Made by a program: the position numbers and the translations under genes
The notes under the pieces: generated by a model
Seen by the model: the letters and a program-made list of their open reading frames with translations, nothing else
Told to the model about the DNA's origin: nothing
Databases searched by the model: none
Shown here: positions 13,057 to 48,167 of the stretch, in pieces
Position numbering within the stretch: the stretch's first letter is position 1
How the letters are laid out: each line of letters opens with the position of its first letter
Assembly: GCA_963764715.1 (NCBI GenBank)
Contig: CAVXTP010000001.1
Span: 11,504 to 75,503 of the forward strand
Length of the DNA: 64,000 nucleotides
DNA from: an uncultured Acidobacteriota bacterium
GTDB lineage: Bacteria > Acidobacteriota > Thermoanaerobaculia > UBA5066 > Gp7-AA6
Reading direction: 5' to 3'

Positions 13057-13441
13057 GGGTCGGATTCTAGTCGCAGCCGGCGACGCGCGGGCGCGTCGGG
13101 ATCGCGGCCGGAGGAGACGCGAGGTCGCGCCGCGGGTCGCGGCGAGCCCGAAGTCGGGCTCCGGAGACGCCGCGGAGGTCGCGGCGACTTGACTTGCGTC
13201 CCCGCGAACGCCACAATGAAGTCAAGAGCGATTGCAAGGAAAAATCTTGTACCAACGCGAGGGATGCTTCTAAAATCAAATCGCCGGCTGGGTTGCGGCC
13301 CAACCGGCGATTTTGACGAGCGTATGACCCATCAAACATTCGGCAGCGGCAGACTGAAGGCGATACGCCCTTTGACGGGGGCGGAAAAACTAGCATCTCG
13401 CCCGAGGGCTGTCAATTGGCTGTCGGGAGGGAGGTGACGTA

Positions 13442-25027: not shown

Positions 25028-25336
25028 CTACGCGCCGGAGGCCATCCGCCGCAGCGACTCGAACGAATAGATCCCGTCGTTGTGGCCGTCGGCCCAGTCG
25101 ATCTGCAGGGCGTACGAGCCGACCCACCGGTGGGCCGCCGCCTGGATCGACAGGGGCGTGAGCGGCCGGTCCGGCCCGCGGTAGATCTTGCCGAAGAGGT
25201 CGGGCTCCCCCTTGCACATGGCGCACGGGCAGGCGCGGCGGAGCTTCTCGAGCGACAGGTAGTCCTCGCGCCCGTCGTCCCAGACGATGACGAGCTCCTG
25301 GCCTAGGACCTGGACCTGCTTCGGGACCGAGATCAC
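25028..25336 (-). CDS. DUF971-family protein (gamma-butyrobetaine hydroxylase-like N-terminal domain)
   Basis: CPCAMC motif. ATGA overlap with the stop of the first kinase. Confidence 0.55.
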   Translation of the reverse strand: MISVPKQVQVLGQELVIVWDDGREDYLSLEKLRRACPCAMCKGEPDLFGKIYRGPDRPLTPLSIQAAAHRWVGSYALQIDWADGHNDGIYSFESLRRMASGA

Positions 25337-27939
25337 CGGATGCCTTCGGCCAGGAAGAGGTCCGAGAGGATGCGGTTGTACGAGTAGACGTACGTCTTGC
25401 CGTCGGGCGTCAGGGCGGGAGGCGACAGGAGGTCAATCCCCGCGGGGTCGAGCGGCACGAGCTCTTTCCAGAGCTCGCGCTTCCCGGTCGAAAGCTCGAC
25501 GCGGAACACGCGGCCCGGAATCTTTTGCCGGTCGAAGAGAAACAGCCAGTGGCTGTCCCCCATCCAGCCGACCGGATCCTCTCCCGGCACGAGGCTCGGG
25601 ATCGGCTGCGGCTCCCCGCCGGCGAGCGGATAGAGATATCGGCGGCGGTCGGGTCCCTGCACGGACGCGAACTTCCCGTCCGGCGAAATCGACCGAAGGA
25701 AGGCCCGATAGCCGGGAGGACTGATGGAACGCGGTTTGGCATCGGCCGAATCCAGAAGGTAGAGGCGCTCGCCCCGGGTTCCCTCGCTCGCGGTGATGAG
25801 GATCGTCTGCCCGTTGGGGAACCACTCGGCGGTCTTGACGACGAGCCCCCCGGCGGTGACCGGCCGCGGAGATCCCGCGCCGGTTGGCAGCATCGAGAGC
25901 TTCGGGTCCTTCGAAATGTTCGTGACTCCCAGTACCCATCGGCCGTCCGGCGAGATCGACATCGGGATTCCCTCGCCGAGCCTGACCGGGGGCGATCCGT
26001 CCATGCGCCGCGTGTACGCCGAGTAGCCCGCTCCCCCGCCCTCGCCCGACTCGACGAACGCGAACCACGAGCCGTCGGCGGCGATGTCGCGCACGCCGGA
26101 CCAGTCGAGCCACGAGAGATCCTTTTCGCCCCTGTCGCCCGGGGCGTAACCGAGGATGCCCGACCGCAGTGTGTCGTGCGCGACGAGAACGCGCCCGTCC
26201 CGGGCCACGTCGTGGAGAGTCAGGTTGCCGGTCACGCGGGCGAGCACCCGCGTCCGACCCGAGAGGCTCGCGGCGTAGATGCTGCGATTCCCGCCGACCT
26301 CGGCGGCCGTAAACCACACCTCGCGGCCGCCCGGGGGCCACGCGAGGCCGCCCGCCGTGGAGAACTCGCGCGCCAGCGTCGTCATCTTCCCGGCCCGGTC
26401 GATCACGGCCACCGATCCCCCGTCGTCGCCGATGGAAGGATGGTTGATGAAGGCCACGGAATCGCCGCCCGGCGAAACGCGCAGGTTGGTGATCCAGCCG
26501 TCGGTCTCGTAGAGCGTCTTGCCGATCGGATATTCGACTCGGGTCTTGGATCCGACGGTGCGCACGATCGCGAGCGTCTGGCCGTCGGGAGCCCAGTCGG
26601 CGAACTGGACCTCCTCCTGGATCTCCCGGGGCGTTCCCCCGCCCGTGATCCCGATGCGGGCGAGCGTGCCGGCCCGCTCGAACGGTCCGACGAAGTGTCG
26701 ATTCAGGCCGACGGCCATCTCGCCGGACGACGAGATCGACAGGACGTCGGCTCCCACGAGCCCGAACGGCCGGGCCTCGGGGCTCTCCAACCGGCTCACG
26801 TAGATTTCGACCGGCCTCCCCTCCCAGGCCGCGGAGTAGATGATGGTCTGGCCGTCGGGCGCGAAGCGCGCCGTGAAGATCTCGCCGCGCTGGAAGGTCA
26901 GCTCCCGGAAGGACGGCGGGGTCGTCGCGCCCGCCTTCTTCCCGCCGGCGAACGCGGCGGCGCCGACGATCGCGGCGAGGGCCAGGGCGGCGAGGATCCA
27001 CGGCCAGGCCCGCCGGCCCGATCGGACCGCCGCCGTTGCCGCGGCCGTCTGATCGGTCGACGTCGAGAACGACGCTTCCGAGAGATGGTCGCGCACGTCC
27101 GCGAGATCGCGCGCGAGGTCCTTCGTCGTGCCGAACCGGTCCTCCGGGTCCTTCGCGAGGCAGCGCTCGACGAGCCAGCGCACGGGCGAGGGCACCTTCG
27201 GGTTGAGCTGCCCGAGAGGCGCCGGCTCCTCGCGGATGATCGCCGTCATCGTCTCCGCCGTCGTCGCCCGCTCGAAGGCGCGCTTGCCCGTCGCGAGCTC
27301 GTAGACCATCGATCCGAAGGAGAACTGGTCGGAGCGAAAGTCGACCATCCGTCCGGACGCCTGCTCCGGCGACATGTAGCCGACCGTCCCCATGACCATG
27401 CCCGGCCGCGTCGGCTCTCCGACCGCCGTCTTCAGGGCCGAGACCTCCTGGTCCTCGGGCGTGATGAGCTTGGCGAGGCCGAAGTCCAGGATCTTCGCGA
27501 ACCCGTGCTTGGAGACCATGACGTTCTGCGGCTTCAGGTCGCGATGAACGATTCCGGCGGCGTGGGCCGCGGCGAGCCCGTCGGCGATCTGCACCGAAAT
27601 CTCGAGGAGCTTCTTGACCGGCACGGGGCCGGCCGCCGAGAGGTCCTTCAGCGTCCCGCCCTCGACGAGCTCCATCGCGATGTAGACGTTCGACTCGTGG
27701 GTGCCGATGTCGTAGATCGTCAGGATGTTCGGGTGCGAGAGCGCCGAGGCCGCCCGGGCCTCCCGCTCGAAGCGGGACCGGCGCTCCGGGTCCGAGGCGA
27801 GCTCGGGAGGCAGCACCTTGACGGCGACGTCGCGTTTCAAACGCTCGTCGCGCGCGCGGTAGACCTCCCCCATCCCGCCGGCCCCGATGGGCGCGACGAT
27901 TTCGTAGGGTCCGAGCTTCGTTCCGGCGGCGAGGGTCAT
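25333..27939 (-). CDS. receptor-type Ser/Thr protein kinase with single TM and periplasmic TolB-like beta-propeller (paralog 1)
   Basis: GxGxxG, VAVK, HRDLKPQN, DFG and SPEQ motifs, then a TM segment, then PDGQ/PDG-repeat propeller. Confidence 0.8.
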   Translation of the reverse strand: MTLAAGTKLGPYEIVAPIGAGGMGEVYRARDERLKRDVAVKVLPPELASDPERRSRFEREARAASALSHPNILTIYDIGTHESNVYIAMELVEGGTLKDLSAAGPVPVKKLLEISVQIADGLAAAHAAGIVHRDLKPQNVMVSKHGFAKILDFGLAKLITPEDQEVSALKTAVGEPTRPGMVMGTVGYMSPEQASGRMVDFRSDQFSFGSMVYELATGKRAFERATTAETMTAIIREEPAPLGQLNPKVPSPVRWLVERCLAKDPEDRFGTTKDLARDLADVRDHLSEASFSTSTDQTAAATAAVRSGRRAWPWILAALALAAIVGAAAFAGGKKAGATTPPSFRELTFQRGEIFTARFAPDGQTIIYSAAWEGRPVEIYVSRLESPEARPFGLVGADVLSISSSGEMAVGLNRHFVGPFERAGTLARIGITGGGTPREIQEEVQFADWAPDGQTLAIVRTVGSKTRVEYPIGKTLYETDGWITNLRVSPGGDSVAFINHPSIGDDGGSVAVIDRAGKMTTLAREFSTAGGLAWPPGGREVWFTAAEVGGNRSIYAASLSGRTRVLARVTGNLTLHDVARDGRVLVAHDTLRSGILGYAPGDRGEKDLSWLDWSGVRDIAADGSWFAFVESGEGGGAGYSAYTRRMDGSPPVRLGEGIPMSISPDGRWVLGVTNISKDPKLSMLPTGAGSPRPVTAGGLVVKTAEWFPNGQTILITASEGTRGERLYLLDSADAKPRSISPPGYRAFLRSISPDGKFASVQGPDRRRYLYPLAGGEPQPIPSLVPGEDPVGWMGDSHWLFLFDRQKIPGRVFRVELSTGKRELWKELVPLDPAGIDLLSPPALTPDGKTYVYSYNRILSDLFLAEGIR

Positions 27940-27966
27940 GGAGAGCGGGGGGATTCTACCGGAGGC

Positions 27967-30546
27967 CTATTTCAGGCCTTCGACGAGCTGGAGATAGGAC
28001 AGAACCCGCAAATAGCTGTACGCGTAGAAGCTGCCGTCGGGAGTGCACACGAAACGGCTGGCGCCCGCGAGGCCCGCGGCGTCGGCGGGCGAAACTTCCT
28101 TCCAGAGGTCGAGCCGGCCCGTGACCGGGTCATACCGCCAGACCTGCATCGGAAGTCGGTTGGCGTCCTGCACGAAGAGGCTCCGCCCGTCCGGCGCCCA
28201 GCGGATGGGGCGATGGTTGGAGGTCAGGCCCGGGAGCGCGGTGGGCTCGCCGCCCCCGACGGCGTAAAGATAGATCCGCTGGTCCGGGCCGCTCACGACG
28301 ACGGACTTTCCGTCGGGCGTCACGGTTCCCCGGAAAAGCGAATAGCCTTCCGGCGAAATGGCGCGCGCTTTCGCTCCCGCGATGTCCCGCACGTACAGCC
28401 GCGTTCCCCGGCCGGCCTCGGACGCGGTAAAGATCAGCGTCTTCCCGTCGGGAAGAAAGTCGGCGTTGAACACGTCGAGCCCGTCGTGCGAAAGAGCCCG
28501 GGGCTCGCCCACGCTCGTGGGAAGCAGGTGAATCTGCGGGGTGGCCGTGTGCGTGATTGCGATCGCCCAAGCGCCGTCGGGCGAGAACGCCTCGGTGGAG
28601 CCGTCGCCGATTCGCACCGCCGGAGTGCCGTCGAAGCCCCGAAGGTATGAGGAGTAGGCGGGACCGCCGCCCTCTCCCGACTCCGTAATGAGGATCTTGC
28701 TCCCGTCGGAGCGAATGTCGGTCACGAGGGAGTAGTCGAGCCACGAAAGCTCCCGCTCCTTGGCATCGCTCGGCCCCCGCGCCAGAATCCCGAGCCGGGC
28801 GCTCTCGTTGGTCATCAACACCCGCCCCTGCTGAGAAATGTCGCGGATCGTGCTGATGCCCGGCACGCGCCCGACCAGGCGCACCTTCCCGGACAGCGTC
28901 ACGCCGTGGACGGCCCGGTTGAAGCCGCCCACGGCCGCCGTGTACCAGATCTCGCTGCCGTCCGGCCTCCAGACGAGGCCCTGGGCCGTCGCATAGAGAG
29001 GCGACACGTCCCGCTTCTTCCCGGCCCGATCCACGACGGAGACGACCCCCCCGTCGTCGTTGGGGACCTGATGGTCGAGGAAGGCGACGAGCCCCCCATC
29101 CGGAGAGATCCGAGGGTGGCTGATCCAGCCCGAGGTTTCGTAGAGCACCTTCCCGATCGGATACTCCACGCGACACTTCGCGCCGACGTCCCGCACGATC
29201 GCCAGGTCCTTCCCGTCGGGAGACCAGTCCGCGAACTGGACGTCGTCGAGGATGTCGCGCGGAGCGCCCCCGGCGATCGATATCCGGGCGAGCCGGCCCG
29301 TCGTCACGAAAGCTTTCGAGCGACGGGGAGCGAGCTTGATCGCCATCTCGCCGGCCTTCGAGATGGCGAGCACCTCGGCGGGGGGCAGGCCGAAGGGCCG
29401 CGATTCCGGGCTTTCCGGTCGGTTGATGAAGATCTCGAAGGGCGCCCCTTCCCAGGCGGCGGAATAGACGACCGTCTGGCCGTCCGGGGCGAAGAGCGAG
29501 CCCGCGACCTCGCCGCGCGAGAACGTGATCTGGTGAAACTCGGGCGGTTCGACGACGCCGGCCTTCTTGCCGGCGGAGTAGAGGAACGGCGCGGCGATGG
29601 CCGCGCCGAGGACCGCCGCGAGGATCAGCGCCGGCCAGGGCCGCTTCTTCCCGGCCGACGGCAGGGCGCGCACGCCGGTCGTCGTCCCGGAGACGCCGGA
29701 GAGCGCCTCGAGGTCGAACGCGACGTCGCGCGCCGACTCGAACCGCTCCTCCGGGTTCTTCTCCAGGCAGTGCCGCACGATCCGGTCGAGGCCCGGATGC
29801 ACCTCCTTGTTCGTCGCGGACAGGTCGGGCGGCTCCTTGGTCAGGATCGCCGTGATCGTATCGGCCGCCGTGTCCCCGCGGAATGCGCGCTGGCCCGAGA
29901 GCATCTCGTACAGGATCGTCCCGAACGCGAAGATGTCGGACCGGCGGTCGGCGGCCTTCCCGCGCACCTGCTCGGGCGCCATGTAGCCCATCGTGCCGAG
30001 GACGACGCCGGGCTCGGTGCCGCCCGAGACGGTGTTCATGTCCGTCTGGCCGTGCTCGTCCCGCTCGGTCTTCAGCTTCGCCAGTCCGAAGTCGAGGATC
30101 TTCACCCGCCCGTCCTTCGTCAGGAAGAGGTTCTCGGGCTTGAGGTCCCGATGCACGATCCCCTTCTCGTGCGCGGCCGCGAGACCCCGCGCCATCTGGA
30201 CGGCGTACTCGATGGCCTTCCGCACCGGGAGCGAGCCCGTCAGCAGCCGCGCCCGCAGCGTTTCGCCTTCGAGGAGCTCCGTCACGATGTAGGGCGCGCC
30301 CGCGTGCATTCCGAAGTCGTAGACCGCGGTGATGCCCGGATGGTTCAGCACGCCCGCCGCCCGCGCCTCCTGCTCGAAGCGCTTGAGGCGGTCGGGGTCC
30401 TGCGAGAAGGTCGCGGGCAGCACCTTGATCGCCACGTCGCGCCCCAGCCGCGGATCCTTCGCCCGGTAGACCTCGCCCATGCCGCCCGCGCCGATCGGCG
30501 CGAGGATCTCGTAGGGACCGAGCTTCGATCCGGCGGAAAGCGTCAC
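27967..30546 (-). CDS. receptor-type Ser/Thr protein kinase with TolB-like beta-propeller (paralog 2)
   Basis: Same architecture as paralog 1. N-terminus nearly identical to paralog 3. Confidence 0.8.
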   Translation of the reverse strand: MTLSAGSKLGPYEILAPIGAGGMGEVYRAKDPRLGRDVAIKVLPATFSQDPDRLKRFEQEARAAGVLNHPGITAVYDFGMHAGAPYIVTELLEGETLRARLLTGSLPVRKAIEYAVQMARGLAAAHEKGIVHRDLKPENLFLTKDGRVKILDFGLAKLKTERDEHGQTDMNTVSGGTEPGVVLGTMGYMAPEQVRGKAADRRSDIFAFGTILYEMLSGQRAFRGDTAADTITAILTKEPPDLSATNKEVHPGLDRIVRHCLEKNPEERFESARDVAFDLEALSGVSGTTTGVRALPSAGKKRPWPALILAAVLGAAIAAPFLYSAGKKAGVVEPPEFHQITFSRGEVAGSLFAPDGQTVVYSAAWEGAPFEIFINRPESPESRPFGLPPAEVLAISKAGEMAIKLAPRRSKAFVTTGRLARISIAGGAPRDILDDVQFADWSPDGKDLAIVRDVGAKCRVEYPIGKVLYETSGWISHPRISPDGGLVAFLDHQVPNDDGGVVSVVDRAGKKRDVSPLYATAQGLVWRPDGSEIWYTAAVGGFNRAVHGVTLSGKVRLVGRVPGISTIRDISQQGRVLMTNESARLGILARGPSDAKERELSWLDYSLVTDIRSDGSKILITESGEGGGPAYSSYLRGFDGTPAVRIGDGSTEAFSPDGAWAIAITHTATPQIHLLPTSVGEPRALSHDGLDVFNADFLPDGKTLIFTASEAGRGTRLYVRDIAGAKARAISPEGYSLFRGTVTPDGKSVVVSGPDQRIYLYAVGGGEPTALPGLTSNHRPIRWAPDGRSLFVQDANRLPMQVWRYDPVTGRLDLWKEVSPADAAGLAGASRFVCTPDGSFYAYSYLRVLSYLQLVEGLK

Positions 30547-33128
30547 TTCAAGCCCTCGACGAGATACAGGTCCGACAGCGTGCGCTGAAAGCTGTAGACG
30601 TAACCTGTGCCGTCCGGAGTGATGATGATCGGCGCGATGTCGACGATCCCCGAACCGTCGGCCGGCATGACCTCGCGCACGAAGTCCTTCTTTCCGGTGC
30701 CGAGGTCCAGTCGAAACACGCGCCCGGGCAGATCGCGTCTTCGGAAGACGTAGAGGGATTTGCCGCCGGCTCCCCAGCCTGCAGGCGACTCGTCATCGGC
30801 GAGTCCCGGGACCGGAACGGGCTCGCCACCGGCCATGGGATAGAAGTAGCGCTTCCGGTCGGGCCCGACGACCAGGACCCGGGTGCCGTCCGGCGTGACG
30901 CCTCGGGAGAACGACCGATACCCCTCCGGCGTCAGCGCCCGCGGTTTGCCGGCTTCGATCGGGATGACCCAGATCCGCGGGCCGTGCCCCGGCTCGTTCG
31001 CCGTGAAAACGATGCTCTTTCCGTCGGGGGTGAACGAGCTTCCGCCCTGGGTCTCGAGATCACCCGTCGCAAGGACCTTTTTCTCGCCGGCCCCCGTCGG
31101 GTAGAGGGTGATGGTGCGTTTCTCCCGACCGACCTGGACCGCGGCCCATTGCCCGTCGGGGGAAAGCGCCTGGCCGCCACCCTCGCCGAGACGGACCGGG
31201 GGCGCGCCATCGGTGCTCCGAACGAAGGTCGAGTACGCCGGACCCGAGCCTTCGCCGGTTTCCGAAAAGAGAATCGTTTTCCCGTCGTCGGAAAGGTCGA
31301 AGAGCGAGGACCAGTCGAGCCACGTGAGCTCCTTCTCCCTGGCCTGGCCTTCCCTCCCCCCGAGGATCCCGATGCGGATCGAGTCGTGCGCGACGAGGAC
31401 GCGCCCGTCCCGCGAAACGTCCTGGAGCGTGAGGCTCTGCGTCACCCGGGCGAGCAGGCGTTCGCCGCCGCTCAGCAGAAAGGCGTGAATCGCGCGATTG
31501 CCCCCCACCTTGGCTCCGGTGACCCAGATCTCCTTCCCGTTCGGCGACCACGCGAGGCCGTATTCCGACGAGAACGCCCCGGCGAGCGACGTCTTTTTCC
31601 CGGCCCGGTCGACGATCGCGACCGACCCTCCGTCGTCGCCGCGCTGCGGATGGTCGAGAAAGGCGACGATTTTGCCGTCGGGAGAAACGCGCGCATGGCT
31701 GATCCAGCCGGCCGTCTGGTAGAGGACCTTCCCCGCGGGAAACTCGAGCTGGTTGCGCAGGTTCACGTCCCGAACGAGCGCCAGATCTTTCCCGCCCGGC
31801 CCCCAGTCCGCCCATTGCACTTCTTTGTGGATCTCGCGGGGAGCGACTCCGCCGCTCACGCCCACCTCGGCGAGCGTGCCGCTCCGGGTGAAGGGCCCGT
31901 CGTTGTGGCGGTCGAGCGAGACCGCCATTTCGCCGGTCTCGGAGATCGCGAGAAGGTCCGCGCCGACGAGGCCGAACACGCGGGACTCGGGGCGGTCCGT
32001 GCGGGTCGAGAAGAGCTCGACCGGCCTTCCGTCCCACGCCGCCGCGTAGACCACGGTCTGGCCGTCGGGCGCGAACCTCGCGGAGTAGACCTCGCCCCGC
32101 CGGAACGTGAGCTGCTGGTAGTTCGGCGGCGGAACGTAACCCGCCTTCTTGCCGTACCGGTATCCGGCCGCGACGCCGGCCGCGAGGGCGAGCAGGGCGG
32201 CGAGAAGCGCCGGCCCGATCCAACGCGAGCGCTTCGCCACGACCGGGGTGAGGACGGCGCCCGTCTGCGAGGAGACGCTCGAAAGGGATTCCAGGTCGAA
32301 CGCGACGTCCCGCGCCGACTCGAAACGCTCCTCCGGGTTCTTCTCGAGGCAGTGCCGCACGATCCGGTCGAGGCCGGGATGGATTTCCTTGTTGGTCTGC
32401 GAGAGGTCCGGCGGCTCCTTGGTCAGGATCGCCGTGATCGTGTCCGCCGCCGTGTCCCCGCGGAACGCGCGCTGACCCGACAGCATCTCGTAGAGGATCG
32501 TTCCGAACGCGAAGATGTCCGACCGCCGGTCGGCCGTCTTGCCCCGCACCTGCTCCGGCGCCATGTAGCCCATCGTCCCCAGCACGACGCCCGGTGTCGT
32601 CCCGCCCGAGACGGTCTGCATGTCGGTCTGGCTGCCGTCGCCCTTCTCGGTCTTCAGCTTCGCGAGGCCGAAGTCGAGAATCTTCACCCGTCCGTCCTTC
32701 GTGAGGAAGACGTTCTCGGGCTTCAGGTCCCGGTGGATGATCCCCTTCTCGTGCGCCGCCGCGAGACCCTTCGCGAGCTGCACGGCATAGTCGACGGCCT
32801 TGCGGACCGGCAGCGAACCGGAGAGAAGGCGCGCCCGGAGCGTCTCGCCCTCGAGAAGCTCGGTCACGATGTACGGCGCATCGTCGTGCGTCCCGAAATC
32901 GTAGACCGCCGTGATGTTCGGGTGGTTCAGAAGGCCCGCGGCGCGCGCCTCCTGCTCGAAGCGCTTGAGGCGGTCCGGGTCCTGCGAAAACGACGCCGGG
33001 AGCACCTTGATCGCGACGTCGCGCGAAAGGCGCGGGTCCTTCGCCCGGTAGACCTCGCCCATCCCTCCCGCGCCGAGCGGCGAGAGGATCTCGTAGGGAC
33101 CGAGCTTGTTTCCGGCGGAGAGCGTCAT
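30543..33128 (-). CDS. receptor-type Ser/Thr protein kinase with TolB-like beta-propeller (paralog 3)
   Basis: Same architecture as paralog 1. ATGA overlap with paralog 2. Confidence 0.8.
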
Positions 33129-33154
33129 TAAGGCGGCAGGATTCTAACCGCGAA

Positions 33155-35725
33155 TCACTTGACGCCGTCGACGAGGTAGAGGTCCGACAGCAGCCGGAAG
33201 TAGCCGTAGACGTAGGACTGGCCGTCGCTCGCCGGCCCAGGATTGATGTTCGAGACGCCTGCGGCGTCGGCCGGCATCAGCGTTCGCCAGAGCTCCTTCT
33301 TCCCCGTGGCGAGCTCCAGGCGGTAGGCCTTCGCCGGCACTTCGCTGCGTCGGTGAACATAGAGAAAGCGGCCGTCGGCGCTGCGCTGGTCGACCGAGTC
33401 GTCGTCGTCGAGCCCCGTTATGGGAGAAGGTTCTCCGCCAGCGAGCGGATAGAGGTAACGCCGTCGATCCGGGCCGCCGACGACGGTCCACTTTCCGTCG
33501 GGAGCGGTGACTCCGGCCAGCGAGTAGCCCTCCGGAGTCAGGGCCTTGGGCTTGCCGCCCGCCACGTCGAGCCGGAAGACCCGCGAGCCGCGGCCCGGTT
33601 CGGCCGCCTCGATGAGAACGCTCTTTCCGTCGGGGACCCACGCGGCTCCGAAAACCCTGAGGCCGTCGGTCTTGAAGACCTTCATCTCTCCCGCCCGGGT
33701 CGGATACGCAACGAGGCGGGGATCGGAGGACGTGCGCTGGATCGCCAGTGCCCACTCTCCGTCCAGCGACAGGTCCCGGGCTCCGCCCTCGCCCAGCCTC
33801 ACGGCCGGAGAGCCGTCCGTCTTCCGTATGTAGACGGAGTACCCGGCGCCTCCTCCCTCCCCTGTCTCGGAGAAGAGGATCGTCCGGCCGTCGGCGGCGA
33901 TGGCGGCGCCGAGCGTCCAGTCGAGCCAGGTCATGTCGCGCTCCTTCGTCTCGCCCGGAGCCAGGCCGACCATCTCGGAACGAAGCGTGTCGCGCGTGAC
34001 CAGCATGCGGCCTTCCCGCGAGATGTCCTGCAGCGTGAGGCATCCCGGCACCCCGGCGCGAAGCGCCGCCTTCCCCGAAAGGGTGGTCACGTAAAGAGCG
34101 CGGTTGCCCCCGACCTCCGTCGCCGTGAACCAGATCCGCCCGTCGGCGCTCCATGCGAGACCCTGCGCCGACGCAAACGACTGCGAGGCTGTCCGCTTCT
34201 TCCCGGAGCGGTCGACCACCGCGATCGACCCGCCGTCGTCCCCGGGCGTGGGATGGTCGTCGAAGGCCACGAGCTCTCCGTCGGGCGAAACGCGCAGGTG
34301 ACTGACCCATCCGCTCGTCTCGTAGACGGTCTTGCCGACCGGGTACTCGATTCGGCTCTTTCCAGCTCCTCGGAGAGAGACGGCAAGGGCCTTGCCGTCG
34401 GGCGCCCAGTCCGCCCATTCCACCCCTTCGAGGATCTCGCGTGGCGCCGCGCCCCCCGCGACGGAGATCTGCGCGAGCGTTCCCTGGCGCCGGAACCCAC
34501 TCACGGATCTCCGGTTGAGCGAAACGGCCATGTCCCCCGTTCGCGAGATCGCGAGGAGCTCCGCGCCGACGAGGCCGAACGGCCGCGATTCCGGGCTCTC
34601 GGGACGCCCCACGAAGATCTCCATGGGGCCGCCGTCCCAGGCGGAGGAGTACACGACCGTCTGGCCGTCGGGTGCGAAGCGCGCGGCGTAGATCGTGCCG
34701 CGGCGGAAGGTGAGCTGACGAAACGACGGCGTGTCGAACTTCACCGTGCCGCGGCCGAGGAAGAACGTCGCCGCCATACCCGCGACTGCGAGCGCGCCGA
34801 CGAGGAGAAGCGCCCGGCGCGGCCGCGACATCACGACCCCCTTCGCCGCCGCGGCGACCGCCGCCGGGGTCGACCCGGACAGCGCCTGGAGGTCGAACGC
34901 CAGATCGTGCGCCGAGTGGAAACGTTCCTCGGGGTTCTTCTCGAGGCAGTGGCGCACCACGCGCTCGAGGCCCGGCGCCACGTTCTTGTTCGTCGCGGAA
35001 AGGTCCGGCGGCTCCTCGCGCAGGATCGCCGACATCGTCTCGGCCGCGGTGTCGCGGTGGAAGGCGCGCGATCCCGAGAGCATCTCGTAGAGCACTGCCC
35101 CGAACGCGAAGATGTCCGAGCGAGCGTCCGCCGGCTTTCCCTTGACCTGCTCGGGCGCCATGTAGCCGAGCGTCCCGAGGACGACGCCGGGCTCCGTCCC
35201 GTCCGCCGTCGGAAGGTTGGTCTGGGGATTCGTTTGATTTTCGGGCTGGGTCAGCTTCGCCAGGCCGAAGTCGAGGATCTTGACCCGCCCGTCCTTCGTC
35301 AGGAACAGGTTCTCGGGCTTCAGGTCGCGGTGGACGATGCCCTTCTCGTGCGCCGCCGCGAGACCGCGCGCGATCTGCGTCGCGTAGTCGGTGGCCTTGC
35401 GGACCGGCAGCGCTCCGCCCGAGAGGCGCGCGCGCAGCGTCTCCCCTTCGAGGAGCTCCGTGACGATGTACGGCGCGCCGTCGTGGGTGCCGAGGTCGTG
35501 GACGGCGGTGATGTTCGGGTGGTTGAGCCCGCCGGCCGTCTGGGCCTCCTGCTCGAAGCGCCGCAGCCGTTCCGGGTCGCCCGAGTACGACGCCGGCAGG
35601 ACCTTGACGGCGACCTCGCGCTTCAAGCGCTCGTCGCGCGCCCGGTAGACCTCCCCCATCCCTCCGGCGCCGATCGGCGCGAGGACCTCGTAGGGCCCGA
35701 GCTTCGTTCCGGCGGCGAGGCTCAT
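33155..35725 (-). CDS. receptor-type Ser/Thr protein kinase with TolB-like beta-propeller (paralog 4)
   Basis: Start taken at MSLAAGTKLGPYEV, inside a 1257-aa GC-driven ORF. ATGA overlap with paralog 5. Confidence 0.75.
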   Translation of the reverse strand: MSLAAGTKLGPYEVLAPIGAGGMGEVYRARDERLKREVAVKVLPASYSGDPERLRRFEQEAQTAGGLNHPNITAVHDLGTHDGAPYIVTELLEGETLRARLSGGALPVRKATDYATQIARGLAAAHEKGIVHRDLKPENLFLTKDGRVKILDFGLAKLTQPENQTNPQTNLPTADGTEPGVVLGTLGYMAPEQVKGKPADARSDIFAFGAVLYEMLSGSRAFHRDTAAETMSAILREEPPDLSATNKNVAPGLERVVRHCLEKNPEERFHSAHDLAFDLQALSGSTPAAVAAAAKGVVMSRPRRALLLVGALAVAGMAATFFLGRGTVKFDTPSFRQLTFRRGTIYAARFAPDGQTVVYSSAWDGGPMEIFVGRPESPESRPFGLVGAELLAISRTGDMAVSLNRRSVSGFRRQGTLAQISVAGGAAPREILEGVEWADWAPDGKALAVSLRGAGKSRIEYPVGKTVYETSGWVSHLRVSPDGELVAFDDHPTPGDDGGSIAVVDRSGKKRTASQSFASAQGLAWSADGRIWFTATEVGGNRALYVTTLSGKAALRAGVPGCLTLQDISREGRMLVTRDTLRSEMVGLAPGETKERDMTWLDWTLGAAIAADGRTILFSETGEGGGAGYSVYIRKTDGSPAVRLGEGGARDLSLDGEWALAIQRTSSDPRLVAYPTRAGEMKVFKTDGLRVFGAAWVPDGKSVLIEAAEPGRGSRVFRLDVAGGKPKALTPEGYSLAGVTAPDGKWTVVGGPDRRRYLYPLAGGEPSPITGLDDDDSVDQRSADGRFLYVHRRSEVPAKAYRLELATGKKELWRTLMPADAAGVSNINPGPASDGQSYVYGYFRLLSDLYLVDGVK

Positions 35726-38292
35726 TTCAATCCCTCGACGAGGTAGAGATTCGACAGGTTGCGGAAGTAGCTGTAGGCGTAGGCACCGTTCGGCGCATTT
35801 CGGAACGCGACCAGACCGTTCACGCCGGTCGCGTCGGCCGGAAAGAACTCGCGCCAGAGCTCCTCGCGTCCGGTCTCCGGGTCGAGCGCGTAGATCCGCA
35901 TCGGAATCTCGGTCGAGGTCCCCTTGCGCACGAGAAGGCGGCCGTCGGGCGCCCAACCGGCCAGCGATGATGATGCCTCGAATCCGGGAACCGCCTTCGG
36001 TTCTCCGCCGTCGACCGACACGATGAACGCTTCGCCCTTCGGTCCCCTGGCCGCGAAACGCTTTCCGTCCGGGGACACCGTGGCCCCGCTGACGCCCTCC
36101 GCGGTCAGCGGCCGCGGAGCGCCACCCTCGACGTCGAAGACGTACGTCCGCGCGGCGCGTCCCTTCTCGACGGCGACGCCTAGAAAGTGCCGTCCGTCGG
36201 GCAGCCACCGGGCAGCCCGAACCGCGAGGCCCCCGTTCGGCACCTTCTTCGCTTCGCCGGCGCCCGTCGGGTACACGACGAGCTCGGGCGCGTCGGGCGG
36301 GCCCACGAACGCCAGCACGCTCTTCCCGTCGGCGGAAATGGACTGCGCGTTGCCTTCTCCCAGCCGCACCGCCGGCGAACCGTCGATCGCGCGCACGTAG
36401 ACCGAATAGCCCTTTCCACCGCCCTCGCCCGCTTCGCTGAACAGGACGGTCCGACCGTCCTGGGAGATGTCCGACATCAGGCTCCAGTCGAGCCAGCTCA
36501 GGTCGACTTCCTTCGCGTCGCCGGCGCCGCGGGCGAGAACCCCGATCTGCGCGGTGTCGTGCGAGATGAGGACCCGGCCGTCCCGCGAGACGTCCTCGAG
36601 CGTCAGCGACCCCGCGACGCGGGCGAGCGTCCGAATCCGGCCCGACAGCGTGGCGGAGCGGAGAACGCGGTTGCTGCCGACCTCCGCCGCCGTGAACCAG
36701 ACTTCCGAGCCCCCGGGCGACCAGGCGAGCCCGCTCGACGACGCGTAGACGGGCGAGATCGTGGTCTTCTTCCCGGCGCGGTCGACCACGGCCACGGATC
36801 CTCCGTCGTCGTTGACCGCCGGATGATCCAGGAACGCGATCCGGGCGCCGTCGGGCGAGATACGGGGATTGCCGATCCATCCCGCGGTCTCGAACAGGAC
36901 CTTTCCGGTCGGGAACTCGAGCCGGCACTTGCGGTTCAGGACCCGCACGATCGCGAGGTCCTTGCCGTCGGGAGACCAGTCGGCGTAGTCCACGTTCTCG
37001 AGGAGCTCGCGCGGCGCGCCGCCGGTCGCGCTCACGCGCGCGAGAGTGCCGGCGCGCGTGAAGGCGGTGTCGAAGTCGGCCTTGAGGATGACGGCGACTT
37101 CGCCCGAAGCCGACACGGCCGCGACGTCGGCGCCGGGAAGGCCGAACGGCCGCGACTCCGGGCTGTCGGGACGGCTGACGTAGATCTCGGCGGGCTTGCC
37201 GTCCCAGGCCGCCGTCGTCAGGATCGTCTTCCCGTCGGACCCGAAGCGGGCGCCCCAGATGGCGCCCTTGCGGAACGTGAGCTGGTGGAACGTCGGGGGC
37301 TCGGTCGCTCCCTTCCCGTGGCCGAGGAAATAGCCGACCGCCACGGCGGCCGCGAGGGCCGCGGCGCCGAGCGCGTACGGAACGACGCGCATCCGCGCGG
37401 ACCGCTCCGGGACGGCCGGAACCGCGGTGGAGCCGGTCGTGCCCGACAGGGCCTCGAGGTCGAACGCCAGGTCGTGCGCCGAGTGGAAGCGCTCCTCGGG
37501 ATTCTTTTCGAGGCAGTGCCGCACGACGCGGTCGAGGCCGGGCGCGACGTTCTTGTTGGTCGCCGAGAGGTCCGGCGGATCCTCCCGCAGGATCGCGGAC
37601 ATCGTCTCGGCCGCGGAGTCGCGATGGAAGGCGCGCGAGCCCGAGATCATCTCGTAGAGGACCGCTCCGAACGAGAAGATGTCCGAGCGCGCGTCCGCCT
37701 TCTTTCCCTTGACCTGCTCGGGCGCCATGTAGCCGAGCGTGCCCAGAACGACGCCGGGTTCGGTGCCGTCGGCGGTCGGCAGGTTCGTCTGCGGGCCCGC
37801 AGCGCCATCGGCCTGCGTGAGCTTGGCGAGCCCGAAGTCGAGGATCTTCACCCGCCCGTCGTTGGTGACGAAGAGGTTCTCAGGCTTCAGGTCCCGGTGA
37901 ACGATCCCCTTCTCGTGCGCGGCCGCCAGCCCTCGGGCGACCTGGATCGCGTAATCGGTCGCCTTGCGGACCGGCAGCGCGCCGCCCGAGAGGCGCGCCC
38001 GCAGCGTCTCGCCCTCCAGAAGCTCGGTGACGATGTACGGCGACCCCTCGAACGCGCCGAGCTCGTAGACCGAGGTGATGTTGGGGTGGTTGAGCCCGCC
38101 CGCGGACTGGGCCTCCTGCTCGAACCGGCGCAGCCGCTCCGGGTCCTGCGCGAAGGACGCTGGCAGCACCTTGACCGCGACGTCGCGTTTCAACCGCTCG
38201 TCGCGCGCCCGGTAGACCTCTCCCATCCCGCCGGCGCCGAGCAGGCCGAGGACCTCGTAGGGACCGACCTTCGTACCCGCGGCAAGGCTCAC
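35722..38292 (-). CDS. receptor-type Ser/Thr protein kinase with TolB-like beta-propeller (paralog 5)
   Basis: Same architecture as paralog 1. N-terminus close to paralog 4. Confidence 0.8.
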   Translation of the reverse strand: MSLAAGTKVGPYEVLGLLGAGGMGEVYRARDERLKRDVAVKVLPASFAQDPERLRRFEQEAQSAGGLNHPNITSVYELGAFEGSPYIVTELLEGETLRARLSGGALPVRKATDYAIQVARGLAAAHEKGIVHRDLKPENLFVTNDGRVKILDFGLAKLTQADGAAGPQTNLPTADGTEPGVVLGTLGYMAPEQVKGKKADARSDIFSFGAVLYEMISGSRAFHRDSAAETMSAILREDPPDLSATNKNVAPGLDRVVRHCLEKNPEERFHSAHDLAFDLEALSGTTGSTAVPAVPERSARMRVVPYALGAAALAAAVAVGYFLGHGKGATEPPTFHQLTFRKGAIWGARFGSDGKTILTTAAWDGKPAEIYVSRPDSPESRPFGLPGADVAAVSASGEVAVILKADFDTAFTRAGTLARVSATGGAPRELLENVDYADWSPDGKDLAIVRVLNRKCRLEFPTGKVLFETAGWIGNPRISPDGARIAFLDHPAVNDDGGSVAVVDRAGKKTTISPVYASSSGLAWSPGGSEVWFTAAEVGSNRVLRSATLSGRIRTLARVAGSLTLEDVSRDGRVLISHDTAQIGVLARGAGDAKEVDLSWLDWSLMSDISQDGRTVLFSEAGEGGGKGYSVYVRAIDGSPAVRLGEGNAQSISADGKSVLAFVGPPDAPELVVYPTGAGEAKKVPNGGLAVRAARWLPDGRHFLGVAVEKGRAARTYVFDVEGGAPRPLTAEGVSGATVSPDGKRFAARGPKGEAFIVSVDGGEPKAVPGFEASSSLAGWAPDGRLLVRKGTSTEIPMRIYALDPETGREELWREFFPADATGVNGLVAFRNAPNGAYAYSYFRNLSNLYLVEGLK

Positions 38293-40871
38293 TTCAGGTC
38301 CCTCACGCGGTACAGGGTCGAAAGAATGCGATTGAACCCCGCCGTCATGATCCGCCCGTCGGGGATGACGCGGGCCGGGCCGAACGCCGTCACGCCGGCG
38401 CTGTCGGGACCGACGAGGTCCCGGACGTGCGTTCGGTGGCCGGAGACGATGTCGATCAAGTCGACGCGGCAGGGAATGCCCACAACCGAGACGTAGAGGC
38501 CCTTTCCGTCCGCCGACCAGCCCGCGGGATAGTCGCCAACCTGCGAGGCGGGCAGATCCACGGGCGGTCCGCCGCCGACCGGATAGAGATGGACCTTCTG
38601 GTCGGGGCCGGTCGCCGTGACGAAGCGACCGTCGGGGGACACAAACAGGCGGCTCGGGTTCAGACCTTCCGCGCTGATCGGGGTCGGCTTCCCTCCCGCA
38701 ACGGGCTGGGCATACAGCCGCGCTCCATGGCCCGGCGCCGCGGCTTCGAAGAAGAATTTCGACCCGTCCGGAAGGAACGCGCCGTACGTGGGCCTCCCGA
38801 GCCCGTCCGGCGGGAACTCGCGGGGCTGCCCCGCCTTGACCGGAACGAGCACGAAGTGGGACGGCTCGGTGTAGGTCCGCGTCAGGGCCCAGGCGGCGTC
38901 CGGCGAGAGCGCCAGCCCCACCCCGTCGCCGAGTCGCACGGCGGGGGATCCATCCGTTTGCCGCAGGTACACCGACCCGTTGGCGCCTCCGCCCTCGCCC
39001 GATTCGTCGAACAGAAGGAGCTTCCCGTCGCTGGACAAAGCGCGATCGCCCGACCAGTCGAACCAGCCCAGATCGCGGCCCGCCGACTGATCCGGCAGGA
39101 ATGCCAGGACTCCGGAGCGATAGTCGTCCTCCGTGACGAGAGCGTTCGTGCCGGCCAGATCGAGCAGGGCCGGTGTTCCTTGCATCGTCCGAAGCAGGCG
39201 CAGCTTGCCCGAAAGCGTAACCGCCCAGATCTCACGCTCGATGCCCTGGCTTGCGGCCGTAAACCAGATCTCGCGTCCTCCCGGCGCCCAGACGAGGCCC
39301 TGGACGGTGGACCATCCCCCGGCGAGGTCGAGCTTCTTCCCCGAACGGTCCACGACGGCGATCGTGCCGTCGTCCCCGAATCCCGGGTGATCGATGAAGC
39401 CGATCTGCGATCCGTCCGGCGAGAAGCGCGGGCCCTGGATCCAGCCGGCCGTTTCGTAGAGCACCTTGCCGATCGGGAATTCGAGGCGCTCCTTTCCCGA
39501 CGTTCGCTGGACCACCGCGAGATCCGTCCCTCCCGGCGCCCAATCGGCATACGTCACGTCCTGCAGGATCTCCTTCGGCGCGCCCCCCGAGAGCGGCGCC
39601 CTCGCGAGCGTTCCGGTGTAGGCGAAGCCGGCCGGAGACGGTTTCGAGTCGAGTTGAATCGCAACCTCGCCGCCGGAGGAGATTCCGAGCAGGTTCGCCG
39701 CCGGGAGATTCAGCGCGGAGGATTCCGGATTTCCCGGCCTCAGGGAATAGATGCGAGGAGCGGCGCCTTCCCAGGCGGCACCGTAATAGACGGTCTGGCC
39801 GTCGGGCCCGAACCGGGCCGCGAGGATCGTCCCTCGCTGAAACGTCAGGCGCTGGAAGGTGGGCTGAGCTGCCGGAGCCGCCCGACGGCCGACGAACAGG
39901 CCGACCGCCGCGCCGAGAAGGATTCCGGCCGCGACGAGCGGGATCGCCCACGACCTCCGGCGCACCGGCTCGGCGACGGCCATCCCTCCGGAGGCCGACG
40001 TCGTGACCTCCGAAATGTGCTCGCGCACGCTCTTCAAGTCCCTCGCGAGGTCGCGCGTCGACGCATAGCGCTCGTCGGCGTCCTTGGCGAGGCAGCGTTC
40101 CACGATCCATCGGAACGGGGCGGGCGCGCGCGGGTTGACCTGCGCGACCGGCTCCGGTTCGTCCCGGATGATCGCCGTCAGCGTCTCCGCGCCCGTGTTC
40201 TTCTGAAACGCGCGCTTCGAGGTCGCCATCTCGTACAGGATCGAGCCCAGCGCAAACTGGTCGGACCGGAAGTCGACCGGGCGGCCGCTCGCCTGCTCCG
40301 GGGACATGTACCCCACCGTTCCCATCACCGTGCCGGGCTGTGTCTCCTGGGGGATCGCGGTCGGGGCCCCGGACTCCTTGTCGCTCGGCGCGACGAAGAG
40401 CTTCGCGAGACCGAAGTCGAGGATCTTGACGAAGCCGTCCTTCGTGACCATCACGTTTTCGGGTTTCAGGTCGCGGTGGACGATCCCTGCGCCGTGCGCC
40501 TTGGCGAGGCCTTCCGCGATCTGGACGGCGACGTCGAGCAGCTTCTTGCCCGCGAGGGGCCCGGAGGCGAGCAGCTCGCGCAGGCTCGCGCCTTCGACCA
40601 GCTCCATCGCGAGGTAGGGGGACCCGTCCGAGGATCCGATCTCGTGGATCGTGATGATGTTGGGATGGTTGAGGGCGGACGCAGCTCGCGCCTCCTGCTC
40701 GAAGCGCTTGAGGCGGTCCGGGTCCTGCGAGAACGAGGCCGGCAGGACCTTGATGGCCAGCTCGCGCGAGAGGCGGGGATCCTTCGCGCGATAAACCTCC
40801 CCCATGCCTCCCGCCCCGAGAGGCGCAAGGATCTCGTAGGGTCCGAGCTTTGTTCCGGCGGAGAGGGTCAA
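38289..40871 (-). CDS. receptor-type Ser/Thr protein kinase with TolB-like beta-propeller (paralog 6)
   Basis: Same architecture as paralog 1. Kinase domain most similar to paralog 1. Confidence 0.8.
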   Translation of the reverse strand: MTLSAGTKLGPYEILAPLGAGGMGEVYRAKDPRLSRELAIKVLPASFSQDPDRLKRFEQEARAASALNHPNIITIHEIGSSDGSPYLAMELVEGASLRELLASGPLAGKKLLDVAVQIAEGLAKAHGAGIVHRDLKPENVMVTKDGFVKILDFGLAKLFVAPSDKESGAPTAIPQETQPGTVMGTVGYMSPEQASGRPVDFRSDQFALGSILYEMATSKRAFQKNTGAETLTAIIRDEPEPVAQVNPRAPAPFRWIVERCLAKDADERYASTRDLARDLKSVREHISEVTTSASGGMAVAEPVRRRSWAIPLVAAGILLGAAVGLFVGRRAAPAAQPTFQRLTFQRGTILAARFGPDGQTVYYGAAWEGAAPRIYSLRPGNPESSALNLPAANLLGISSGGEVAIQLDSKPSPAGFAYTGTLARAPLSGGAPKEILQDVTYADWAPGGTDLAVVQRTSGKERLEFPIGKVLYETAGWIQGPRFSPDGSQIGFIDHPGFGDDGTIAVVDRSGKKLDLAGGWSTVQGLVWAPGGREIWFTAASQGIEREIWAVTLSGKLRLLRTMQGTPALLDLAGTNALVTEDDYRSGVLAFLPDQSAGRDLGWFDWSGDRALSSDGKLLLFDESGEGGGANGSVYLRQTDGSPAVRLGDGVGLALSPDAAWALTRTYTEPSHFVLVPVKAGQPREFPPDGLGRPTYGAFLPDGSKFFFEAAAPGHGARLYAQPVAGGKPTPISAEGLNPSRLFVSPDGRFVTATGPDQKVHLYPVGGGPPVDLPASQVGDYPAGWSADGKGLYVSVVGIPCRVDLIDIVSGHRTHVRDLVGPDSAGVTAFGPARVIPDGRIMTAGFNRILSTLYRVRDLK

Positions 40872-40903
40872 GTCGGGGCGATTCTACGACGGCCGCGCTT
40901 CGT

Positions 40904-43594: not shown

Positions 43595-43664
43595 CGGGCG
43601 TTGTCCGGATTCTACCCGCAGTCGTGGAATATCCTTGCCGCGCTTACTCAATCGAAAGGCCGTC

Positions 43665-46858: not shown

Positions 46859-48138
46859 CTACTCGTAACGGAGCGCTTCGATCGGATCGAGCCGCGACGC
46901 CTTCACCGCCGGGTACAGGCCGAAGAAGATCCCGACCGACAGCGAGACGACGAGCCCGAGGACGACGGACCACAACGGCGTCTCGGCCGGCAGGGCGTCG
47001 AAGGCCGCCTTGATCGCGGCGGGCACCGCGACGCCGACGGCGACGCCGATGATGCCGCCGAGGACCGAAAGGGTCGTGGCCTCCGTCAGGAACTGCAGCA
47101 CGATGTCCCGGCGAAAGGCGCCGACGGCCTTGCGCACGCCGATCTCCCGCGTCCGCTCGGTCACCGAGACGAGCATGATGTTCATCACGCCCACGCCGCC
47201 GATCACGAGCGACACGAACGCGATGAAGATCATGGCCAGGGTGATGCCCTGGGTGATCCCGCGGAAGCTCTCGATCATCTTGTCCGGCGTGACGATCCCG
47301 AAGTCGTTCGGCTGGTCGAACCGGACGTGGCGCCGGGTCCGCAGGACCTGCTGGACCTTGTCGATGAGGGCGGGGACCTGGTCGGGCCGGTGCGGCACCA
47401 TGGCGATCCGGAGCGCGTCGCCGTCGAGGCCGCCGACCTTGATCCAGGGGAAGCGCCGGTCGAAGGTCGTCAGCGGGATCGTGACGAAGTTGTCCTGCGA
47501 CTCGCCGAACATCTTCCCCTTCTTCTCGAAGACCCCGATCACCGTGTAGGCGTCGTGGCCGAGCGTGATCCGCTTCTGCAGGGGGTCCTCGCCGGGGAAA
47601 GAGCTTCTCCGCGATCTCCGCTCCGAGCACGATGACGTCGGCCGCGTGCTCCACGTCGAGCTCGTTCAGGAACCGTCCCTGCGACACGAAGCGGCTCAGG
47701 GCGACGGCGTAGGGCTCCATCACGCCGAAGACCCTCGGCGACTGGACCTCGTTGTCGCGGTACTTCAGGTGGAAGTTCGAGTTGTCCCAGAGGTAGCGCT
47801 GCGGCGAGACGGCCCGCGCCTCCGGCACCTGCTTCCCGGATCGCTTCGGCGTCGGCGAGGGTCAGGTCCTTCCTCCGCAGCTCCCCTTCCGGGCGCGGCC
47901 CGCCGGGCCCGAAGCGCGGCTCGTACTTCTGGACCATGACGAGGCTCGCGCCGAAGCTCTGGAAGTTGCGGACCATGTTGTTGTTGAAACCGGTGACGAT
48001 CGAGACCATCGCGATGACCGTCGCCACGCCGACGACGATCCCGAGAACCGTCAACCCGGCGCGCAGCTTGTGCAGGCGCACGGCGAGCATCGCGAACCGC
48101 AGGTTCTCCCCGAACCCGCGCCTCAGGTGCTGGAACAC
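46859..48138 (-). pseudogene. FtsX/MacB-type ABC transporter permease interrupted by two +1 frameshifts
   Basis: Three consecutive ORFs (47539-48138, 46806-47828, 46859-47542) together match the intact 425-aa paralog at 48199-49476. Single extra bases near 47594-47597 (C4 run on the coding strand) and near 47830. Confidence 0.55.
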
Positions 48139-48167
48139 GGGCGGACGCTATCAGCAGTCAGGCGCCC

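Follow-up and report, generated by a model that had tools for sequence, protein, structure and literature searches.

The window analysed here, a stretch of 64,000 nucleotides from the genome of an uncultured soil bacterium of the Thermoanaerobaculia (Acidobacteriota), carries on its minus strand an array of six tandem, co-oriented genes (25333-40871; F, E, D, C, B and A), each of which joins a Hanks-type Ser/Thr kinase on the cytoplasmic side, a juxtamembrane linker that is disordered, a single transmembrane (TM) helix and a double beta-propeller of ~520 residues. The span 27967-38292 on the minus strand holds four complete genes of this array (B, C, D and E) and occupies the centre of the tandem array, whose receptor Ser/Thr kinase genes all point the same way. 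An initial annotation of the window had noticed that neighbouring kinases resemble each other in pairs (paralogs 2/3 and 4/5, where paralogs 1-6 correspond to F, E, D, C, B, A or to the reverse order, with unchanged pairs) and had read this as recent and ongoing tandem duplication. With a probability of about 0.7, the best explanation is instead a set of old receptor-kinase paralogues whose kinase modules have been exchanged or homogenised between neighbours and whose sensors have retained separate, ancient histories. The duplications are not recent and did not copy whole genes pair by pair; the observation behind the initial annotation has been confirmed in part and its interpretation is partly supported, as the pattern is real and has been overstated.

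Exchange has been followed with four-sequence site patterns, in which two paralogues are compared in two genomes and the informative sites are sorted into those grouping the sequences by genome, by orthology or crosswise, given below in this order. For E and D of the window and of L004 (L001-L012 are labels for related contigs from other genomes), the kinase has yielded 14 / 1 / 1 sites (p=1.2e-5) and the propeller 5 / 34 / 10 (p=2.7e-7), and the comparison of L007 with L004 has given 15 / 2 / 1 for the kinase and 6 / 30 / 10 for the propeller. Against L004, the informative E/D sites at residues 14-293 are nearly all genome-grouping and those from ~300 onwards nearly all orthology-grouping, with the switch at residues 293-300 falling into the juxtamembrane linker. 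This points to exchange or gene conversion confined to the kinase module. The within-genome identity of the E and D kinases (88.5% in the window, 88.4% in L004) exceeds that of the orthologues (79.9% for E-E, 85.5% for D-D), and E/D thus shows what is expected of concerted evolution, namely paralogues that are closer than orthologues in the converted segment and orthology outside it. In the comparisons of the window with L007 (kinase 0 / 27 / 0, propeller 2 / 138 / 1) and with L001 (kinase 0 / 22 / 0, propeller 0 / 220 / 0), both halves follow orthology, and the E/D kinase homogenisation consequently took place after the split of L004 and before window, L001 and L007 separated. For C/B, exchange is suggested: the quartets with deeper B orthologues point weakly in the same direction, 4-9 kinase sites placing B with C vs 1-4, and 19-33 propeller sites favouring orthology.

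The two domains also disagree in neighbour-joining trees with bootstrap. The propeller tree resolves separate clades for the lineages A, B, C, D, E and F of the window and for X and Y, two sensor lineages found in relatives, each with 92-100% support (E 92-98%, D 100%, B 100%) and with several genomes per clade. The kinase tree resolves three classes only, K1 (A and F, 96%), K2 (B, C and X, 100%) and K3 (D, E and Y, 99%). Whole-gene pairs that later diversified, as the initial annotation had it, would be expected to recur in the propeller, but B+C and an exclusive D+E have each been recovered in 0 of 200 bootstraps, and the C propeller joins the A clade in 64.5% of them and never B. D+X is found in 100%, and A-E, X and Y stand together in 99%. 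Similarly, the proposed grouping of paralog 6 with paralog 1 holds for the kinase (class K1; 66.1% F/A identity at residues 1-280) and fails for the propeller, in which A+F has obtained 0%.

Exchange has likewise been found for lineage X, in which a D-like propeller (61-62%) is combined with a kinase of class K2 that shares 83-87% with C/B and 73% with D, and for the gene L005.12061 (L005 12304-14892). The latter occupies the same array position as the X-type gene L001.12584 (L001 12599-15181), and the kinases of the two are 93% identical and the sensors 54%; the sensor of L005.12061 falls into the Y clade (100%) and that of L001.12584 is of the X type, which makes the pair a clear case of either sensor replacement or kinase copying. 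In addition, the kinase of the C-type gene of L007 groups with that of the B-type gene of L009 (94%). The kinase of F is itself a mosaic, its residues 1-64 (40680-40871) belonging to the B/C class and the remainder to the A class (K1); nucleotides 1-225 of F are 81-83% identical to C/B and include a 44-nt exact run with C at alignment nucleotides 142-185 (run-length permutation test, p=0.0005). This mosaic is old, since the F orthologue L002.7416 (kinase 90%, propeller 80% identical) has the same one.

Regarding the likeness that had drawn attention to the span, the kinase pairing is real: at residues 1-280, E/D are 88.5% identical in amino acids and 85.2% in nucleotides, C/B 90.3% and 86.0%, and the cross pairs of E/D vs C/B 72-76%. 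The first ~300 residues of the pairs had been called nearly identical, which differences of 10-12% in amino acids and 14-15% in nucleotides do not bear out. The propellers do differ more than the kinases, and divergence is not uniform along the gene, both as had been stated, with a steep fall in identity at ~residue 275-285; linker and helix reach 22-44% in all pairs, and the propellers of A-E are mutually 50-54% identical. Among these, E/D (50.6%) and C/B (49.6%) do not stand out, as D/C (53.6%) and D/A (53.5%) exceed E/D, so that the propeller carries no signal of the pairs; F shares 43-45% with the rest. The steep fall at the kinase end has been considered as evidence of a breakpoint and rejected, because the linker is unconstrained even among orthologues (34-90% identity). 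The kinase of G, the first gene of the array, which bears a TPR sensor and lies outside the span, shares ~60% identity with the E, D, C and B kinases and 47-49% with those of F and A. The A and F kinases are themselves just 54-61% identical to the E-B kinases and cluster weakly with homologues from Terriglobales. Taking these values together, kinase relatedness does not track sensor type.

The age of the duplicates has been judged from nonsynonymous (dN) and synonymous (dS) divergence, computed by the Nei-Gojobori method. Synonymous sites approach saturation: for the kinase, E/D have a dS of 0.54, C/B of 0.51 and the cross pairs of 0.55-0.61, and dN alone differs (0.064-0.068 in pairs vs 0.18-0.21 in cross pairs); the propeller dS of paralogue pairs is 0.8-1.0. 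The low synonymous divergence that is a hallmark of recent tandem duplicates is accordingly absent from E/D and C/B, and the claim of a recent origin falls. At identical kinase residues, the same codon is used in a fraction of 0.68 for E/D, 0.71 for C/B and 0.65-0.70 for cross pairs, near the chance expectation of 0.59-0.61 from kinase-specific codon usage, and the level of the pairs matches that of orthologues as far as L009 (0.707) or L002 (0.64-0.67). The 85% nucleotide identity of the kinase pairs results from 88-90% protein identity combined with a GC content at third codon positions (GC3) of 0.92-0.95. Nor is either member of a pair the closest relative of the other over the whole gene, as each copy has closer orthologues in other genomes. 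L007 has the gene order E-D-C-B-A, as in the window, with a propeller dS of 0.57-1.13 to the window genes, and therefore all four genes predate the split of window and L007. Duplication also does not appear to be ongoing: the sensor lineages all have orthologues in other species, and a search of 11 arrays has found no young duplicate, that is, no paralogues above ~90% kinase or 66% propeller identity. In the seven related arrays, the top within-array identity is 86-90% for the kinase, whatever sensors are paired, and 53-66% for the propeller. All sensor lineages, A-F as well as X and Y of the relatives, are old, having arisen before the sampled species diverged.

The orthologous tandem arrays have been found in seven related contigs (L001-L005, L007, L009), with three to six such genes each. 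Their content varies among the genomes, from 4 to 7 genes and with the lineages F, X and Y present or absent; L001, for instance, reads G-E-D-X-C-B-A, without F and with the additional lineage X, and L004 holds distinct E-, D- and X-type sensors. Propeller identities to the orthologues are, for E, 95% (L001), 84% (L007) and 56% (L004); for C, 91% (L001, L005 and L012) and 75% (L007); for B, 90% (L005), 78% (L001), 75% (L007), 76% (L009), 75% (L003) and 68% (L002); and for A, 69% (L002), 64% (L004), 74% (L007) and 76% (L009). Where flanks were fetched, window and arrays have upstream MacB/FtsX genes in common (L001-L005), and window, L002 and L004 share downstream a DUF971 gene, an ABATE/zf-CGNR gene and an extracytoplasmic function (ECF) sigma factor with its anti-sigma factor. 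The nearest genomes are metagenome-assembled genomes of the Microflora Danica collection. D has more than 100 full-length homologues with 64-97% identity, of which those with a source name come from Thermoanaerobaculia or Acidobacteriota; the contig collection holds no exact match to protein D. In a scan of species genomes, the whole architecture has been observed across Acidobacteriota (Thermoanaerobaculia, Terriglobales, Vicinamibacteria and Solibacteraceae), with few matches in other phyla.

Among orthologues, sensor change outpaces kinase change by a factor of 3-10. Between window and L007, the kinases have an amino acid identity of 88-98.5%, a dN of 0.012-0.066 and a ratio of dN to dS (omega) of 0.03-0.13, and the propellers an identity of 74-84%, a dN of 0.10-0.19 and an omega of 0.17-0.20; for more distant orthologues, the sensor omega is 0.15-0.34. 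The sensors are consequently under relaxed purifying selection with an omega of ~0.2. Of the sensor diversification that had been proposed, the much faster evolution of the sensor half stands, and there is no gene-wide sign of the diversifying selection that is typical of immune-like receptors. The paralogue propeller omega of 0.39-0.57 has been rejected as a sign of selection, since dS is saturated, and orthologue comparisons have been used in its place. Over the seven clades, 19% of the sensor columns are invariant, 13% clade-specific and 68% variable; the variation is spread along the domain, somewhat more in the second propeller, and mapping of clade-specific conservation on the sensor has revealed no localised hot spot.

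In the proposed explanation, neighbours resemble fresh duplicates because strong purifying selection acts on the kinase modules (residues 1 to ~295). In addition, gene conversion or unequal crossing-over, breaking within the linker, has swapped these modules between paralogues or made them alike. The exchange is not recent, having taken place before the window genome separated from L001 and L007. Several points weigh against this reading. The trees are neighbour-joining and not likelihood trees, and the deep propeller nodes are weak (D+X+B 65.5%, D+X+E 26.5%, C+A 64.5%), so that E could be an old sister of D+X. The link of the E clade to L004.4658 depends on 56% identity, informative sites in the C/B kinase quartets are few, and the E/D propeller has a slight surplus of shared codons (0.594 vs 0.50 expected). 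The contigs L001, L003 and L005 carry fragmented genes, probably through sequencing errors. Furthermore, the run-length permutation test has detected no long recent conversion tract in the window apart from the 44-nt F-C run, and exchange is for this reason drawn from between-genome comparison only.

The observations that led to the initial annotation can be cast as recent whole-gene tandem duplication of E/D and C/B, followed by fast propeller divergence under diversifying selection with nearly static kinases. Such a course would account for adjacent kinases of 88-90% identity next to sensors of ~50%, for C-type and E-type sensors that occur mainly in closer relatives, for the shared-codon surplus of the E/D propeller, and for a paralogue omega that is higher in the propeller (0.47-0.57) than in the kinase (0.13). 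We regard it as very unlikely, as the kinase dS of the pairs equals that of the cross pairs with codon identity near chance, the four genes stand in the same order in L007 at a propeller dS of 0.57-1.13 and so predate that split, the pairs vanish from the propeller bootstraps with separate E, D and X sensors present in L004, the orthologue sensor omega remains at ~0.2 and no array contains a younger duplicate. If the duplications were instead old and involved whole genes without any exchange, the kinase tree ((E,D),(C,B),(A,F)) would be the true one and the propeller tree would have been scrambled by saturation and long branches. The plateau-like A-E propeller identities of 50-54%, the weak deep propeller nodes and the 19% of sensor columns that are invariant across clades fit such a history. 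The conflicts are shallow and well supported, however, with X joining D in the propeller and K2 in the kinase, both at 100%, and the kinase of L005.12061 at 93% identity to that of X beneath a sensor placed in the Y clade at 100%; in addition, saturation can neither make within-genome E/D kinases closer than orthologues nor yield a clean site-pattern switch at residues 293-300. This history is therefore considered unlikely.

An origin of the pattern in the assembly, with copies collapsed, expanded or chimeric from 2.6-kb repeats, has also been weighed, as the initial annotation had named near-identical repeats of this length an assembly hazard. The copies indeed recur with a period of 2567-2723 nt, and a MacB-like neighbour is split over three frames, so that the assembly is not error-free. 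The repeats are far from near-identical, though: no two copies share an exact aligned run of more than 44 nt, and the best windows of 236-300 nt are 80-87% identical, which leaves a difference of at least 13% between copies even there. All six open reading frames (ORFs) are intact with conserved motifs, and the same genes occur in the same order in independent assemblies of related genomes. The assembly risk is low, and an artefact of this kind has a negligible probability.

Returning to old paralogues with exchanged kinase modules, one may postulate a more general form, in which modular receptors are mixed and matched and a few kinase modules (K1, K2, K3) are repeatedly copied onto old sensors via linker recombination. 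We put this forward as a tentative possibility that is rather doubtful at present. If it were true, several periplasmic inputs would remain coupled to a small common set of downstream phosphorylation pathways, and concerted evolution, not recent duplication, would often be the reason for kinase clades that look species-specific in bacterial kinomes. The sensors probably recognise periplasmic ligands that differ from gene to gene and switch the attached kinases, and through the array several inputs would enter phosphorylation signalling. High identity of one domain in a GC-rich genome (GC3 ~0.9) is no proof of recent duplication, because codon bias inflates nucleotide identity. The array provides a clean bacterial example of a receptor kinase whose two halves have different histories, which bears on the reading of kinase-domain trees in work on bacterial kinome expansion, where the kinase domain is usually the sole basis for inferring lineage-specific duplication. 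It also represents a widespread receptor class of Acidobacteriota, kinase plus double PD40 propeller, with thousands of database members; as such, the gene family is of a known kind and holds little to surprise a specialist.

Membership of the Hanks-type Ser/Thr kinases is indicated by the Pkinase (PF00069) scores of 163-177 bits in the six copies and G (cut-off 31.7), by the motifs GAGGMGEV, (V/L)A(I/V)K, HRDLKP(E/Q)N, DFG and (S/A)PE, which are intact in F, E, D, C, B and A, and by the bilobal fold; kinase activity itself is putative. Each of F-A has one hydrophobic helix at ~residues 303-333 and PD40 repeats above the Pfam cut-off. In the full-length AlphaFold model of D, with a mean predicted local distance difference test (pLDDT) score of 82, the kinase spans residues 1-283 and is followed by a disordered stretch (284-308), a helix (309-323) and an all-beta part (334-853), the layout of kinase, TM helix and extracytoplasmic beta-propeller that is typical of PknD. 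The kinase of this model is closest to PknA/PknB of M. tuberculosis (template modelling score normalised to the target, TM(target), 0.8-0.9; 36-39% identity; E about 1e-20), and Foldseek with the full-length model has returned kinase matches only, which are uninformative for the sensor. The D sensor has also been considered in a model of its own, built from the window sequences and four D orthologues (mean pLDDT 89.8, predicted TM-score (pTM) 0.86). Foldseek has matched it to two-propeller proteins (2ymu, LRP6, glycoside hydrolase family 74 (GH74) enzymes, tricorn protease), DPP-IV and TolB with TM-scores of 0.3-0.37 and identities of 10-16%, and a phmmer search of the D sensor against solved structures has matched the TolB propeller alone (E=6.5e-5). 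Precomputed Pfam matches to Tricorn_N and Tricorn_2nd are weak or faint.

No NCBIfam equivalog model reaches its cut-off. The PASTA kinase family (PknB / Stk1, NF033483) scores 290-305 bits against 450 and the PknD equivalog (NF009651) 155-160 against 839, both on the kinase region only, and a Pfam scan of the kinases has found no PASTA domain; the TolB equivalog (TIGR02800) scores 28-40 bits against 343, with the PD40 repeats as the sole common part. Matches in PADLOC to PD-T4-6, MADS MAD6 and BREX PglW cover only ~residues 5-300, that is the kinase domain, and have been rejected as evidence of defence. The NCBIfam MAD6 and PglW models stay far under their cut-offs, and the ten flanking proteins scanned include no partner genes of anti-phage kinase systems. 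There is thus no pointer to defence; PD-T4-6, being a single-gene system, may still fit by sequence.

PknD of M. tuberculosis resembles the array genes in its N-terminal Hanks-type kinase, juxtamembrane linker, single TM helix and extracytoplasmic beta-propeller, and the kinase fold of the array is nearest to the mycobacterial PknA, PknB and PknE. The sensor of PknD is one six-bladed NHL-repeat propeller. The array differs in its double propeller of ~520 residues with PD40 repeats and in its tandem genes, PknD being a single gene. One report presents PknD as a receptor kinase with a regulator of a sigma factor as its target (PMC1847690). In Planctomycetota and Myxobacteria, membrane Ser/Thr kinases whose periplasmic part consists of WD40 or TPR repeats have been reported to form lineage-specific expansions, some of them in tandem, for which duplication and/or recombination has been proposed (PMC11032199, citing Perez et al. 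2008). Species-specific kinase-domain clades have been taken as recent duplication in such studies. The array gene G has a TPR sensor as in these kinases; the other array genes carry a TolB-like PD40 double propeller and not WD40, their sensors show that the genes are old, and the likeness of their kinases is partly due to exchange. PD40 repeats are common to the array sensors, TolB and the propellers of tricorn and DPP-IV, from which the array genes differ by having neither the TolB N-terminal domain nor a peptidase domain. In clusters of plant receptor kinases or nucleotide-binding leucine-rich repeat (NLR) receptors, the signalling module is homogenised between neighbours, recognition lineages remain separate, and members are gained and lost. 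Compared to these, the array is bacterial and operon-like, has sensors under purifying selection (omega ~0.2) and contains no near-identical young copies. Literature searches on the kinase-PD40 architecture and on gene conversion among Hanks-type kinases have returned nothing specific.

As a further observation, the divergence of the window at 33155-38292 from the closest genome (L001 7509-12571) is a mosaic. The propellers of D and E have a dS of 0.16, the D and E kinases of 0.37-0.45 and C of 0.29-0.47, and the propellers of B and A have a protein identity of just 78%; in the flanks, the MacB gene is 95% and the S9 peptidase 77% identical. The mosaic points to recombination among related lineages or to hidden paralogy. 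It is unlikely that conversion from E caused the excess kinase dS between the D genes of the window and L001, as ~17 amino acid changes would be expected by a rough estimate and 4 have been seen.

The features of the locus are collected in Table 1. The GC content of the window is ~70% and the GC3 of the kinase genes 0.89. The true start of D is the ATG at 35725, the ORF list having extended the gene to 36928, and the start of G has been refined to 43594. Overlaps of 4 nt occur at the junctions F/E, E/D, C/B and A/next gene, and spacers of 26-32 nt separate G from F, D from C and B from A.

Table 1. Genes, modules and sequence motifs of the receptor-kinase array and its surroundings (positions in the window).
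Feature	Position	Strand	Description
G	40904..43594	-	Ser/Thr kinase with C-terminal TPR sensor; first gene of the array, beyond the span 27967-38292; Pkinase 172 bits and several TPR families
F	38289..40871	-	Kinase, TM helix and double propeller; kinase class K1, first 64 residues B/C-like
E	35722..38292	-	Kinase class K3, E-lineage sensor; stop overlaps D start by 4 nt
D	33155..35725	-	Kinase class K3, D-lineage sensor
C	30543..33128	-	Kinase class K2, C-lineage sensor; stop overlaps B start by 4 nt
B	27967..30546	-	Kinase class K2, B-lineage sensor
A	25333..27939	-	Kinase class K1, A-lineage sensor; last kinase of the array; 4-nt stop overlap with next gene
Kinase module of D (residues 1 to ~295)	34841..35725	-	Groups with E by genome, not by orthology
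Kinase module of E (residues 1 to ~295)	37408..38292	-	Exchange partner of the D module
Sensor of D (residues 336-856)	33155..34720	-	Tandem double beta-propeller, PD40 repeats
GGTAGAATC motif	27952..27960	-	13 nt upstream of A start codon; kept in the equivalent spacers of L001, L004, L007 and L009
GTTAGAATC motif	33140..33148	-	12 nt upstream of C start codon
TAGAATC motif	40880..40886	-	9 nt upstream of F start codon
GGTAGAATC motif	43608..43616	-	14 nt upstream of G start codon
GBBH-like_N (DUF971) gene	25028..25336	-	PF06155, 69.9 bits; follows the A-type kinase here and in related arrays

Among the neighbouring genes, a MacB/FtsX-type permease gene (~46859-48147, minus strand) next to an M48 peptidase lies in three reading frames when compared to its 95% identical L001 orthologue, and therefore contains two assembly frameshift errors or is a pseudogene. 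Directly upstream of the array and divergent from it, an S9 peptidase gene with a DPPIV_N / PD40 propeller (43635-45872, plus strand) shares the PD40 repeat type with the kinase sensors; it is also found in L001 and L005 and is fragmented in L003. At the other end, the DUF971 gene (L002 20487-20828; L004 15218-15529) overlaps the stop of the A-type gene by 4 nt in the window and in L002, lies 5 nt downstream of it in L004, and the gene calls of L001 and L005 join the two into one. The DUF971 product may be a dedicated partner, or a substrate.

A motif of the form (G)GT(T/A)AGAATC has been observed 7-14 nt upstream of the starts of G, F, C and A and of one unrelated gene (13063-13069). Its core TAGAATC occurs in the window in six copies, all six on the minus strand, with 1.8 expected over both strands. 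In the related loci, the motif is present in the equivalent spacers of L001, L002, L004, L007 and L009 and almost absent elsewhere on that strand. It resembles a promoter -10 box from which leaders would be very short, and the array would then fall into the units G, F-E-D, C-B and A-DUF971.

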